Shown here piece by piece: positions 43,795 to 49,609 of a DNA stretch of 64,000 bases (positions within the stretch are counted from its first letter, which is position 1; the number at the start of each line of letters is the position of its first letter). This DNA comes from Pseudogymnoascus verrucosus (Eukaryota), in assembly GCA_001662655.1 (NCBI GenBank), contig KV460210.1, one strand, 5' to 3'. The notes beneath the pieces are model-generated. The model was not told the DNA's origin. It saw only the letters and a program-made list of their open reading frames with translations, and did no database searches. The position numbers were made by a program, and so were the translations under genes.

Positions 43795-46700
43795 GCTTCG
43801 TATGAGCCGATCCTTAACGCCCTTGGGCCTCCTCCTTCATACGGAGTGGCTTCAGCCAGAGGATTTCTCCAGCAAAGAAGGGTTCCGCTGAGGGTCGCGC
43901 GGGAGCCTTGTCGGTTGTCGGAGAAGAAGGTTGCGCACTCTAATGAAGATGATTATATTTAGTTGGCCGCATTGAATCCCCGGCCGACTTTTAACAAGAG
44001 CGCCGCGTCGTGTCGAATTGGTTGGCTCTCGCTCTGGCTAGATCGACCGACTCGATGTAGGTCGAATACTAAAATCGTTGTCTGAGAGATGTGAGATCCA
44101 GCATTTGAAGCCGCGAAAACGAATGACTTTCGACTCGAGAATTTCGAAGTAATAGTGATAAATAATAGATTAACCCTCAAGAGTAACCATGTAAAAGCGG
44201 ATTATTGTCAGGGAGCCAAGACCAGCGACAAGGTAAAACGACGGCCTTGCCTTCCGACAGTCGGTTGGATAGAGTTGTGGCAGTGCTAAGCCACGTGGTG
44301 GCTGACTAGTAATAGAAAAAGTGGCTGTTCTAGAAATAGTTACTTATTAGCCCCCACTGTCAATTTCCCCGCAACCGGTCGATTCAGCGCCTTCTTTTAT
44401 ATATCAGAGCGGTTCTCTCTTTTGAAAATAGTCGTTTCTTACTCTGATTGATCACCATCGATCCTAATTGATCTCCGTTGATTTTCATTGATATTGATCC
44501 TCATTGTTTGTTACCATGGTATGGTAGGTGACGTACGCTCCACACAACACGAGTCGTCGACACGTCGTCGCCCCCGCAAGTTTACACAGCCCCACGTCCA
44601 CCAACGCCCACGAACGCCCACGAACGCTCACGACAGATCGTTCTTTCCTCGTTTTTTGGTTTTTGGCCCACAAAAGTCATCCCCGCCTCCCCGTATTGCG
44701 CGAGTATTGTGCCGTTGTTTTCGCCTGAGTAACGTTTTTCTCTCGTCATGCCCCCTTCCAGGTGTTTATATGTCTCACAACGCTCCAAAACCAAACTAGA
44801 GGGATTCGGTCAGTAAACACTGGTTGCATAGCACCAGTTGGCAGTAGGGGTCCATGTAGCAACGTTTGAACACAGCGTTGTCTCGGAAACTTTATGCTCC
44901 TGCTTGCATTCGCGCATTGTGTTACAGTGGGGGCGATTTTGGGGACTGAATATCGCCCGGCACGAGACCAAAATGCCAATGATTGAGGGCATGATAACCA
45001 AGATGATAACCAAGTCCAGGGCAGTTTTGATCATTATGCACTTATTTTCTACATCCAACGGGCCGTTGATGATTGATGATTATCAATATTAAAATATTAT
45101 CGCCAATCTATCACTAATATATATCGTAGAGGCTGAAGCGTCCCGTCTTCTCACAACCCGTGCCTCAGGGGTCCTTATTAAGAACCCAATTTCTATATCC
45201 CGTCACTGAACAGGCTCTCCCAGTCATCATCATTTATGCCATCCTAAAGAAGCTACCATCATCCGAACTTCCCTGCCTCATTCCCGTCCTAAATCTAGGA
45301 ACGAGGGTTTAAGGTAGCTAAGAGCATGGTCAGTTTGGCCTCCCGTTCATCGACACCAGGCACTCCCTGTCATCACTATTTTCAGCTACATCTCCCATCT
45401 GTCTCTAACCTCACCATCCTCGATTTCTGGTCACCAGCGTCACTGTCAGACACCTCTGAAACCGCATGACAGCGCTGCATCACGCTCACTCACGCCCAAA
45501 ATCCTGTGCCGGGCCGTTCGTTGCCGTGCAATAGGTACTTCTACCATAGGCACACATACAGCCGCTCAGCACTTCGGCTGTAAGTACTTTCTCACGGCCA
45601 TGCACGAAGGGGAAAAAAGAATCTGGACCGGCCTCGGGCCAGTGGAATTAGGGAACAGGGGGCAAGAGCCCTCGGAGGATTTCCGGTTCATCTACTGCCG
45701 ACAGGCCTTCGTACAATCCCCAACCGGCCATCCGCCGTGATAGACCCGGTCTGAAAGCCATCGATCGATGCAAGTGGACGCATCGCGGGCAAAAAGACAC
45801 AGAAAGGCTAGACCTCAACGACCTTGGCGCAACGTGGCGAATAGATTGGAGACACCGGAGATGTTGGTTGTTGATATATGATATACTATCGGGGCGGCGA
45901 GGGCACATACCCCGCACTGAAACTTGTGATGATGTGTATGAGGTCGGGAAGTTTTGGGAAGGCGCGGGGATCATATGGATAATCCGCGCGGGCGATGTGT
46001 TTCGGGAGTTACGACAACGCTTGGCGGGCGTGTCGCCTCACTACTCGAGGAGCTGCGTGGCTAGTTTATTAAGATGGCAAATATACTCTAGGGGTAGCAC
46101 TGTAGGTGCCCAGGGAGTGTTAGATTGTGGCTCGTGGTCCTGTGGTCCGTAGGGCAATCTCAAGAAAACACCTTCCCCTTTAACGCTGACGACATTAGCG
46201 ATCGCAGGGCGGGAAAGGACCTGGATTGGATTTCAATAGTTCCATATAGCTCCGCTGCCAGTCAATGGATTGGGCGTTGTGCTCTTAGGCACATTCCTGA
46301 AGTATTCGGCATCCCCTGTCCGCGCATGAGGTCCAGCCTGGCCCATTAGAAAGTCGGTCAGTGAGGTAGGTCGTGTAACAGCTGTGAATCACCGCATGTT
46401 GTCAACAGCCCAACAGTTGTTAGAAGAGGAGTGTTCCAATTAAAGTGTTTACAGTCTATATAATTCTACCTGAAAAGCCAAAAGATGTGCGGCGCGAGCC
46501 AATGAACGCAAAATTATTACTGTAGCTCGTAAATTACAAGGTTGACCATGCCTGTCTGGAATACCGTAGGAAAATGAAAATGCAAAATAGTGATGCGATT
46601 GGACCGAAGGGGGTATTCCGTTCTATAACCTGTTGTCATATCGCCCATTCCTCAAAATAACCTCCCTCATAAACCGCGTAGCGAATGTTATAGACAAAGG

Positions 46701-47087
46701 AAAGAAGTCGAGGTCCTGCCCGAGCGTATTATGTAGTGTGCGGCGAGATTTGAAAATAGTATGCGTAGCTGTCGTCGTCGCCGTCTTCGTTTCCGCCTGT
46801 GGATGCCCATATATGTTTTTTTTTCCTCCGGGCCAATTTGCCATCTATCCCATTCAATTCGTATTCACTCTGTCATCAACCAACCGCCAAACTCCGTATC
46901 CGTGCCATCATATCCTAATATCCCCTAAATACCTCTCAAGTGAAAGATCCCTAAGGTCCTCCTCGTTTCTAGAATCACCACTCTCACTGTCATTGTCGCT
47001 GTCGCTGTCGCTATCCTCAGCAAGATCTGAATACCCTTGATTGTCCCCGAACTCAGAAGCTTGCGCTCCTGTTGGAGACGCTGACTG

Positions 47088-47971
47088 CTATAATTCATCT
47101 GCCTTCTCCCGGCACGCTGCCGGCGTAAAGCCTGTCCCCACCTTGCCTGCAACGATACGCCACTTCTCCTGCTCATAGTCTTGAAGTGCGACACGAAGCT
47201 TCTGAACCTAAAGTAGAACAATGTTAGCTAGTAAATTTGCAAAGGCGGGGTTATTCTTACGGTTTCATCGGTCCACTGCGTAGTCTTAGCTTTGAGCTTC
47301 GTACAGTAGCGTACTTGCAGTGTTCCAGATGATCGTCCAGGGAAAAACTCGGCAATTTGCTTCCAGGTCAAAGATTTGTTCTCTTTGAGGTCGACGAGCA
47401 GTTGGTCATCTTCGGGTGTGAACTTCAGCTTCGGTCCGCGCGGCTTCTGAGCTGGCGATGGCATCCCGGGTTGGCCGACTACGCTTGGGGCGCCTTGAGA
47501 CATCATTGAATCATCAGCACCATGTCTTGACATTTTCGACGGCCGTCCCGAGTCCGGAATGTGATGGTGATGATGGTGCTGCGGGGGTGGAGGCTGGCCG
47601 TACCCCACCATACTTTGCTGTCCCAGAGATTCCAGGCCATCGTCCTCCAGTCCTAGATTCATATCCAGCTCCTCGTGTGGCCGCACTCTCTTCAGACTTG
47701 ACGGGCGCTGCTGGCTTGGAGTACCGTATGTTAGATGCTGACCGCTTCTGCTGAAGTGCGGCTGACCGGCGAGCTGGGCCATGGGATCTCCAAGCAGCAT
47801 GGGTTGGTGGTGATGCTGCGACTGCTGCCCACCAAGGTCTTGCAGCGAGTCATGGTTTTGAGCGCCAGCGTGTTGGAGCTGTTGATGATGCTGCTGTGGC
47901 TCGTACAAATGCTGTTGTTGGGTGCCTTCGTCCGCATTTGATACTTGTGCAGAGTAATTGTAGCCCGGCAC
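47088..47971 (-). CDS. Myb/SANT two-repeat transcription factor (start codon uncertain; first in-frame ATG is at 47800)
   Basis: KFTPEDDQLLVDLKENKSLTWKQIAEFFPGRSSGTLQVRY and WTDET|VQKLRVALQDYEQEKWRIVAGKVGTGFTPAACREKADEL*, joined by intron 47208-47260. TAG at 47090-47088. Confidence 0.9.
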
Positions 47972-49609
47972 TACTCGATATGGTGCCGCCAGTGTGCATG
48001 GATTCTTCCAGAGCGGATCGCTCTGGCAGCTTGCCGAAAATGAGAAATGTGGGAGAAGTATGGTGCTTGTTTGGTGATGTTTCTGAATCTCGCGAAGCTT
48101 ATCGCGTGTGTTTGGTGTTTTCCACGGTGGGTGATTTTGTTGTGGTCTATATCAGACTTTATTATAGGAGGGTCAACCGAGTTTGTTTCCTTTCACGTAA
48201 ACAAATAGGCTGAAGGATGTGCGGTAGGCGGGAGTAATATAGATATAGCTAGTATCAAGAGCGGAGGAAGATCGAGGATATGGCAACTTATTATATGGGG
48301 TGGCCCTTGATCCGATATTCCACATGCCAAGCAGACGACTGAGAGATCTCCCCCATAGAGTACAACGATCTATGCGCCAGGCGGATAACCTAATTACTGG
48401 CATTAAAGCGAGCCCTCGAACTCGCTGGGGAGCTGGGATGAGACAGAGCCTGATGGTGGGTTGTGGCGTGTGTGGCTATCCTTGGAGTACCGGTCATGGA
48501 TGCGGTGGTTCTTGGGCATTGCCGTATGCATAATCCGTGGATCCCCTCCTCTAGGGTCCTGGCCCAAAGTGGACTCTCTAACTATGCTGGTATCCATTGC
48601 AATCCCAGGGCTTCCAGGCACCCGCTGACCGCATTATTGTAGGGCAAGCAGGGGGGAGAGGGGCGATGATCAGATTGGCTTTTCCCGATATGGGGGTCAA
48701 ATTGCCAACTATGTGAAAGAACAGGAAGGGGTTCCCATCGAGCATGAAGTCTGGAAACAAAAGGGAGGCTGATGCGACGCGGCGGGGCAACGGCATCGAA
48801 GAATCTGAGGGAGACGTGTGTGGCGTGGGAGTATGAAACCAGTGCCACATTGTGACTCGGACGAGCAGAAAGGGGGCAGGAGACACGTGGGAATGCAAAT
48901 ACTACCGCGGCCTCCAGGCGGCTATCGGATAGAACACCATTCCTTCTGTCACTTCTTGCTTATTCCTCTGCAGACAGACACACTCTGGTCCCGTGTAAGG
49001 AAGGTACTATTGAATCCCACGCCGGGCATACTTTTCGTCCTGATTCAGGGAGCACCGTTGAACACATCCCTGCCCCCCTAAAGTGTAGTTAGCAACAATT
49101 CTGTAAGGTACTGGTGCTAGTGAACGCCAACGCAGCCCACACTAAAATTGGTGATGTACTGAAATACAGGTACAGTGCAAATTCACACGGGTGACATGGA
49201 TGACAGGCATGGCCTTCTCCTTTTCCACAGGAACGCGGCGAAATATCACGGAGATGACGTGATGAAACGGTCCAATGGATACTTAGGGCGGAGAATTCGT
49301 CCCATGGGGTCTAGGGTTGGCCGTGGAGATTGTCAAGGCTTTTTTTGCTGGTGGCCACGTTGGATTTCCCTATGGAGACAAGAATAGCCACGAGAAGAGT
49401 TATCTTACTTTGGTAGGCGTAGTGAGGCACGAGAGACCCAGCATTAATCCCACTCAATCCCGCCTCACTAACGCTACCGAGCCGTAGTGAGACATTACCA
49501 CGAGGTCCGATGAATAATCTGGGGACGATGATGGTGATCGCTACCTGCCTGCGCAACATTAGGGCGAAGTACCGAGTTAACCCCGGCAACATAGAGTCCA
49601 GTAGTTTCT

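Follow-up and report, generated by a model that had tools for sequence, protein, structure and literature searches.

A Conserved and Possibly Recodable UAG Codon between the DNA-Binding Repeats and a Putative Ancestral Tail of a Myb-Like Protein in Pseudogymnoascus verrucosus

In the present work, we examine the stop codon of a gene for a two-repeat Myb-like transcription factor of the fungus Pseudogymnoascus verrucosus. The gene is located in a 64,000-nucleotide stretch of contig KV460210.1 (assembly GCA_001662655.1), called the window below, and all features described here lie on the minus strand of that stretch. Our tentative proposal is that selection maintains the UAG at 47090-47088 as a recodable stop, which would make an ancestral C-terminal tail conditional, most likely by readthrough of the tobacco mosaic virus type. 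The stop is found at the same position in relatives, and the first 16-19 codons behind it are conserved and homologous to tails that other members of the family translate.

The reading frame of the Myb gene ends with GAA TTA TAG CAG TCA and then stays open for 59 sense codons (46911..47087) until a TGA at 46908..46910, which would be the end of a putative long isoform. All of this agrees with the original prediction, made from the letters alone, and the peptide is identical. The UAG at 47088..47090 is the candidate recodable codon, and its A at 47089 is the base that would be edited in one of the alternatives discussed below. The six bases that follow, CAG TCA (47082..47087), match the CAR-YYA context of type I readthrough, in which the C at +4 is the key base according to the accessible parts of PMC3542737 and PMC5397192.

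The extension can be divided into two parts. Zone A (47031..47087) consists of the first 19 codons, QSASPTGAQASEFGDNQGY, and appears to be a conserved segment of the ancestral tail. Zone B (46911..47030), the distal 40 codons (SDLAEDSDSDSDNDSESGDSRNEEDLRDLSLERYLGDIRI), is acidic, of low complexity and lineage-specific. Together, the 59 residues include 17 Asp or Glu, 4 Lys or Arg and 11 Ser. The acidic D/E/S run had been stressed in the original prediction, but Tandem Repeats Finder identifies it as a (GACAGC)n microsatellite (46979..47012) that encodes a DSDSDS run and is located in the least conserved part of the extension; with a period of 6, there are 3.2 perfect copies at 46994-47012 and 5.2 imperfect copies at 46979-47009. 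It should also be pointed out that a stop in this context followed by an open frame is, on its own, about the chance yield of one gene per genome. The weight of the observation rests on the comparative evidence.

The position of the stop is not private to this genome. Three of the four named Pseudogymnoascus models (P0002, P0003 and P0007) and the open reading frame (ORF) P0122 end at ...A[DE]EL, the named models ending in ...ADEL or ...AEEL being those of VKM F-3808, VKM F-3775 and P. destructans. Counting every ...EL end, the three named models are joined by two ORFs. The original prediction took a sense codon here in close relatives as the sign of a nonsense mutation confined to one strain, or of an error in the assembly; as the relatives share the stop position, both possibilities are ruled out. 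The short form has the C-terminus ADEL in the window and AEEL in other Pseudogymnoascus (47088-47099), and its last codon, TTA for Leu, is inferred to be TTA in distant relatives too. This codon may be part of the recoding context or of a C-terminal motif.

In the wider family, the motif of repeat 2 is present in 150 stored proteins. Tails of more than 16 residues, mostly acidic and sense-coded, follow it in 94 of these, and the other 56 have at most 16 residues after repeat 2, with Leu as the last residue in 42 cases. When aligned, the stop column is occupied by Lys in P0123 and Glu in P0145, and the residue just before the Q-S motif is Trp in P0147, P0153 and P0182, Gln in P0125 and Arg in P0198. 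As the sense-coded relatives have K, E, Q, W or R at this column, any residue inserted at the UAG should be tolerated. The Trp after EEL in P0124, P0130 and P0140 was considered as another counterpart of the TAG, but the ambiguous alignment in that region led us to set it aside.

A HMMER search with exon 2 and the extension, in which the TAG was read as W, gave 134 matches at E <= 0.001 among 1.84 billion representatives. As counted from the table of matches, the alignment extends to query position 46 or further in 54 cases, the stop being position 40, and much of the overlap past the stop is acidic low complexity. Two proteins of Leotiomycete type end with ...ASEL KHLQSPGEAPASDLGDAEY (P0123) and ...AQEL EHLAPPAEAPASNLGDVEC (P0145), and in the MAFFT alignment the window segment WQSASPTGAQASEFGDNQGY is gap-free with both tails, directly after the Myb domain. 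When the first 26 residues of the extension were aligned locally, shuffled sequences scored as well in 10/2000 cases for P0123, 2/2000 for P0145 and 21/2000 for P0147. Proteins of the Sclerotiniaceae have a related tail, ...TEL MHPDDSELQSPEPEDLPEDAEY, which is encoded on a further exon; the intron comes directly after ...KWTEL, that is, at the position of the TAG in the window, as can be seen from the retained-intron ORFs P0151 and P0159; P0021 and P0023 belong to the same set of relatives. The idea that Botrytis galanthina and B. hyacinthi also have a TAG was considered, and it was rejected because this genuine intron explains the odd models of these species, in which a wrong upstream 5′ site is joined to the 3′ site of the real intron. 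On the basis of these alignments, we consider the first 19 codons of the extension to be homologous to C-terminal tails translated in relatives, and the tail thus to be ancestral.

The nucleotides of relatives were inferred from protein predictions that run from exon 1 through the intron in another frame, here called frame S (P0008, P0020, P0070 from Monosporascus, P0079 and P0099) or frame T (P0059, P0080, P0086 and P0163). These ORFs were back-translated to degenerate codons, shifted to the Myb frame and anchored at the stop, without gaps over 16 codons. As a control of the frame, the repeat-2 motif was recovered at 22/22 positions in all seven ORFs tested, compared to 13-16/22 with the wrong frame conversion. 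At the stop, the Sordariomycete-type ORFs read xTA YAG/THG CAA YCA RCG TCY CCN ... GGN GAC, and the window reads TTA TAG CAG TCA GCG TCT CCA ... GGG GAC. The stop triplet is compatible with TAG in 8 of the 9 ORFs and is followed by CAA YCA, the +9 base being A wherever it can be determined. A conserved TAG-CARYYA, put forward in the original prediction as a point to check, is compatible with the determinable bases of these eight, but P0020 differs, as described below.

The determinable bases match the window in 20/21 cases for P0008, 16/24 for P0070, 16/26 for P0079, 13/23 for P0099, 15/25 for P0086 and 16/28 for P0020, and for each of these six ORFs none of 980 control offsets is as good. With six Sordariomycete-type ORFs pooled, leaving out P0163 with its indel, codon positions 1 and 2 match in 41/57 cases and position 3 in 33/69 (Fisher p=0.007, which is only indicative as the ORFs are phylogenetically non-independent). 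The pattern past the stop is thus codon-like in the Myb frame, with about 16 conserved codons that appear to vary mostly at their third positions. When longer proteins were searched with the shifted-frame ORF, P0008 was the only match (1 of 136 candidates).

P0008 comes from a congener and shares 97% identity with the window over exon 1. The nine differences inferred between the two in exon 2 affect third codon positions only. In the first 15 codons after the stop, on the other hand, 0/20 determinable positions have changed, compared to 9/39 third positions of exon 2 (p=0.022). All 10 inferred substitutions, as well as an indel of 6 nucleotides in the microsatellite, are located beyond codon 15 of the extension, with at least 1, 3 and 6 changes at codon positions 1, 2 and 3, respectively. 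The extension looks thus two-zoned, with a proximal part of some 16-19 codons that is conserved and apparently ancestral, and 40 distal codons that are lineage-specific and weakly constrained, if at all. The conserved downstream frame that had been anticipated is accordingly indicated for the first 16-19 codons, but not for the distal 40, where the changes look near-neutral and the indel is located.

These results suggest the following scenario. The UAG would divide the ancestral frame into a part for a DNA-binding protein with two Myb repeats and a part for the tail at its C-terminus. With ordinary termination, the tail-less form ending with ...ACREKADEL would be made. A few ribosomes, aided by the CAG-UCA context, would instead insert a near-cognate amino acid at the UAG and continue for 59 codons, whereby the ancestral tail would be restored and the lineage-specific acidic stretch appended. 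The outcome would be two isoforms with common DNA binding that differ in an acidic and aromatic tail. Conditional decoding is in our view the best explanation because the TAG and its flanks are kept in front of an in-frame conserved segment that relatives translate, and readthrough is favoured because the six bases after the UAG agree with the type I consensus and a context of this kind is deduced for distant relatives as well. From the sequences, we infer that ribosomes would pass the stop and that the context would cause this passage.

The function of the tail can be discussed in similarly conditional terms. Its conserved core, which reads ASEFGD..Y, ASDLGDAEY or DLPEDAEY, combines acidic and aromatic residues and would resemble acidic activation segments, and the tail would most likely be either such an activation segment or one that controls stability. 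In the latter case, it may act like the destabilising stop-loss extensions of FgDbf2, to go by the accessible part of PMC13123824. The earlier interpretation of the locus is partly supported; it gains from the non-private stop, from the homology of the conserved post-stop segment to translated tails and from the TAG plus CAR-YYA context deduced for Sordariomycete-type relatives, but loses its emphasis on the acidic run. The comparative evidence is indirect and argues with moderate strength for a functional segment after the stop, and it concerns the first 19 codons rather than that run.

A number of observations weigh against readthrough at this stop. TAGCARYYA occurs 3 times on the two strands of the window, compared to 2.85 expected, and 50 of 100 shuffles reach 3. 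The chance of CAR-YYA per TAG is about 1/512 under uniform base use, by simple arithmetic, and the motif is notable only through its position on the stop codon of a gene. CAR-YYA is known to work in yeast, and its action in filamentous fungi is presumed here. Furthermore, the relatives with a sense codon at the stop column retain Q-S after it, and CAR-YYA may be a by-product of this conserved Gln-Ser instead of a selected feature. In the shifted-frame ORFs, back-translation hides the first (or second) codon positions, so that the stop is only compatible with TAG, being YAG or THG. Three of these ORFs also compare less well with their controls: P0080 matches at 8/14 bases (15/980 control offsets as good), P0059 at 6/14 (111/980) and P0163, which has the indel, at 6/25 (585/980). 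In P0020, which is 74% identical in exon 1, TAG CAG TCA is replaced by YGA YAT HTG, and its D/N run is in frame S, not in the Myb frame. The leaky-stop context is thus not universal, and P0020, with TGA or CGA at this point, has either a short tail that is always made or a site with another mode of action.

The tail comparisons contribute further points of this kind. Of the 17 made pairwise, 14 are non-significant, and a search with the 59-residue extension against longer proteins matched only the VE04_01040 model (1 of 37 candidates), which is also the only relative in which zone B was found. Within the genus, the 3:6 ratio of second- to third-position changes past codon 15 is indistinguishable from neutral (p=0.25), and the changes include inferred replacements, one of them at the conserved Tyr of zone A.

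These points are best weighed together with the competing explanations. The simplest of them is plain termination at ...ADEL, in which the conservation after the stop would reflect an element of the 3′ untranslated region or a decaying relic, and the open frame would be due to chance and the microsatellite. We regard this as rather unlikely, although it must be taken seriously. The probability of at least 59 open codons is 0.063 with the base composition of the window and 0.034 with the local one, and 515 of the 4419 stop-to-stop intervals in the window are at least as long, real genes counted in. Plain termination also accords with the unenriched motif, the microsatellite origin of the acidic run, the near-neutral look of the changes past 15 codons and the fact that most annotators end the protein at EL. 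In addition, the third positions of the first 15 codons are invariant relative to the congener, which points to constraint at the nucleotide level and hints at an RNA-level function, either as part of a readthrough signal or unrelated to translation. However, a relic would not be expected to show 0/20 changes where third positions of exon 2 show 9/39, nor to be still alignable to Sordariomycete-type loci with 0/980 control offsets as good. A pure RNA element, in turn, would account neither for the better match of codon positions 1 and 2 (41/57) than of position 3 (33/69) nor for the similarity to translated tails at the peptide level. A known RNA family was rejected, as Rfam has no match in 46600-47400.

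A different way to the long isoform is stop-loss A-to-I editing of the mRNA, by which the A at 47089 would be deaminated during sexual development, converting UAG to UGG (Trp). In Fusarium graminearum and Neurospora crassa, hundreds of UAG stops are known to undergo such editing. U-A-G is the preferred triplet, and the context here, UUA UAG CAG, has a U at -1. In the accessible part of PMC4817773, 85.7% of the edited sites have a U at -1 and editing affects almost 9% of the UAG or UAA triplets, and the corresponding part of PMC13123824 describes stop-loss extensions as documented and functional in F. graminearum. A fold of 61 nucleotides places the UAG in a hairpin loop of 11 nucleotides (z=-1.95; 9/200 shuffles fold as well), but the hairpin is lost in the 121-nucleotide fold. 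The Trp directly before Q-S in P0147, P0153 and P0182, all of Sordariomycete type, would fit the A/G interchange at edited sites, but W is not the only residue at this column, where K, E, Q or R is found in other relatives. What makes editing improbable as an explanation for the window is that Pseudogymnoascus is a Leotiomycete, a lineage for which the literature does not record sexual-stage mRNA editing. In its accessible part, PMC11156358 reports that editing was not identified in apothecia of Botrytis cinerea; documented cases of stop-loss editing are limited to Sordariomycetes and a single Pezizomycete. The Ame1-Tad3 interaction that enables editing has its origin in Sordariomycetes, and a literature search for Pseudogymnoascus and RNA editing returned nothing relevant. 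In Sordariomycetes, editing at the same codon is quite possible. The F. graminearum stop-loss lists contain a single Myb gene, FGRRES_01915 (FG1G29070), with 12.9% and 14% editing. It is probably FlbD, which has an N-terminal Myb domain of another family, and it was therefore set aside. In FlbD (AN0279) the Myb repeats are at residues 6-110, whereas those of the window protein are C-terminal. FGRRES_01915 is described as a sporulation regulator, and according to the accessible part of PMC3983115 it is needed for normal sexual development. SMAC_02112 is absent from two Sordaria sources, the supplement of Teichert 2017 (one file, possibly incomplete) and the proteogenomics supplements (apart from one PDF of pictures). 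Readthrough and editing could also be combined: the UAG would then be an ancient recoding site, older than the split between Leotiomycetes and Sordariomycetes and kept together with TTA-UAG-CAR-YCA to make the tail conditional, with readthrough operating in Leotiomycetes and A-to-I editing possibly taking over in Sordariomycetes. We consider this broader scenario distinctly unlikely; if true, one codon would record the hand-over between two recoding mechanisms. Finally, the stop could be removed by alternative splicing, as in the NCBI model VE04_01040 (P0006), where an in-frame intron of 54 nucleotides (47088..47141, GTGGGG...TTATAG) eliminates the last 17 codons of repeat 2 and the stop. This model reads ...WRIVAGK/QSASPTG..., skips VGTGFTPAACREKADEL and thereby contains the whole extension. 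The putative intron has GT...AG ends, is in frame and is of acceptable length; AAG/GTGGGG fits the 5′ consensus at -2, -1, +1, +2, +3 and +5, and UUAUAG is a good 3′ site that could also explain the conserved TTA TAG. Against it, no CTRAY branch site is visible, and repeat 2 would lose its third helix, whose conservation is family-wide (16 invariant columns in the MAFFT family alignment; motif in the 150 proteins). The intron is not used in the other three named Pseudogymnoascus models, and the similar models of B. galanthina and B. hyacinthi skip the same helix because of the genuine Sclerotiniaceae intron after TEL. Moreover, any GTN codon for Val upstream of a TAG automatically offers gene predictors such an escape. 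Alternative splicing is thus very improbable, and the 54-nucleotide intron of VE04_01040 is probably an annotation artefact. The Monosporascus model DL765_011616 (P0070) jumps into the wrong frame past its own stop, and gene predictors seem to mishandle the locus systematically.

It is instructive to compare the locus with known systems. The exact fit of UAG CAG UCA to the consensus, the C at +4, the open in-frame extension, and the predicted excess of a short product over one extended at the C-terminus are all as in type I (tobamovirus-type) readthrough. Unlike the viral cases, however, the window contains a cellular gene for a fungal transcription factor and not a replicase or coat gene, readthrough is here predicted, and the Gln-Ser kept in stop-less relatives means that the motif may not be a selected feature. 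The stop-loss editing of Sordariomycetes (FgDBF2, FgMOB1 and FgCDC14) is similar in the UAG with U at -1, the disordered C-terminal extension by tens of residues and the second isoform, and transcription factors are among its known targets, but the host of the window is a Leotiomycete, where no editing has been found. Also, the Dbf2 extension is of low conservation except in close species, as far as the accessible text goes, whereas in the window conservation across classes extends over the first 16-19 codons, whose counterpart in relatives is a translated tail. With restorative editing of 'pseudogenes' such as PUK1, the present case shares an in-frame UAG in an ORF that is continuous in relatives, some of which have TGG (PMC4817773 and PMC10776026, accessible parts). 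Here, however, the stop is at a domain boundary, so that the short form has its DNA-binding domain complete, unlike a truncated and inactive protein, and the objection from the Leotiomycete lineage is the same as for stop-loss editing. As to the protein itself, it resembles fungal two-repeat Myb-like factors (PF13921/PF00249) in its Pfam matches and in the conserved pattern of Trp and other aromatic residues, and hundreds of Pezizomycotina orthologues are named 'Myb-like domain-containing protein' or 'transcriptional activator Myb'. In the literature, we found neither a functional study of this Myb orthogroup nor work linking Myb-like proteins, stop codon readthrough and ascomycetes.

The remaining anatomy of the gene is as follows. 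Exon 1 (47261..47800) starts at the first in-frame ATG (MLLGDP...), contains a His tract and Myb repeat 1, and ends with ...QWTDET. It is followed by a canonical phase-0 intron of 53 nucleotides (47208..47260; GTAAGA ... CTAAC ... TAG), whose splicing is borne out by the orthologues P0002, P0003 and P0007, which read ...WTDETVQKLRVAL... across the junction. Exon 2 (47091..47207) carries Myb repeat 2 (VQKLRVALQDYEQEKWRIVAGKVGTGFTPAACREKADEL) and completes it with the peptide ...EKWRIVAGKVGTGFTPAACREKADEL, the last codons being GCA GAT GAA TTA. In Pfam, exon 1 matches PF13921 (Myb_DNA-bind_6) at 1.9e-13, with 50.8 bits against a cut-off of 22.9, and PF00249 (Myb_DNA-binding) at 6.7e-05, the matches covering residues 191-246 of P0001. 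Exon 2 by itself has no Myb match in the Pfam scan, because only part of repeat 2 is encoded there, and full-length orthologues have precomputed matches to both PF00249 and PF13921. A search with exon 1 gave 954 proteins at E <= 0.001 among 1330 candidates; among the 120 matches listed, those from Pseudogymnoascus are best, with 96-100% identity in the exon 1 protein, and P0006 (VE04_01040, from Pseudogymnoascus sp. 24MN13) is 100% identical to the window gene.

The frame of exon 1 is open, and conserved, upstream of the ATG as far as 48151. The peptide encoded upstream (47801-48151, also 48403-48633), CQSDPLWKNPCTLAAPYRVVPGYNYSAQ..., is common to P0002-P0004, and its core S-L-W-[RK]-N-P-C is found also in the Sordariomycete models P0029 and P0087. 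No in-frame ATG precedes 47800 in the window, and the public models of the gene use four different start positions. The true start may be on an exon further upstream, as in P0003, or at a codon other than AUG. Within exon 1, at about 47557-47574, there is a run of six His codons (PPPPQHHHHHHIPDSGRP), and a His run before [LI]P recurs in orthologues of several classes. A run of nine A is present at 46816-46824, some 90 nucleotides 3′ of the TGA of the extension.

To our knowledge, conserved functional readthrough in fungal nuclear genes has been found mainly for the peroxisomal targeting of metabolic enzymes. The locus described here is a candidate case of programmed readthrough or stop-loss recoding, and not a new mechanism. 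Where predictors 'repair' stops of this kind by placing apparently false introns, as they do for VE04_01040 and Monosporascus DL765_011616, the Myb domain is corrupted in public protein sets. The locus offers also a concrete site at which to ask whether Leotiomycetes edit mRNA at all. P. destructans, a pathogen of bats, belongs to this group, and its orthologue has the same end point. If the proposal is correct, the gene would be a clean case of isoform control by recoding, in which a DNA-binding domain and its tail are parted by a conserved UAG.

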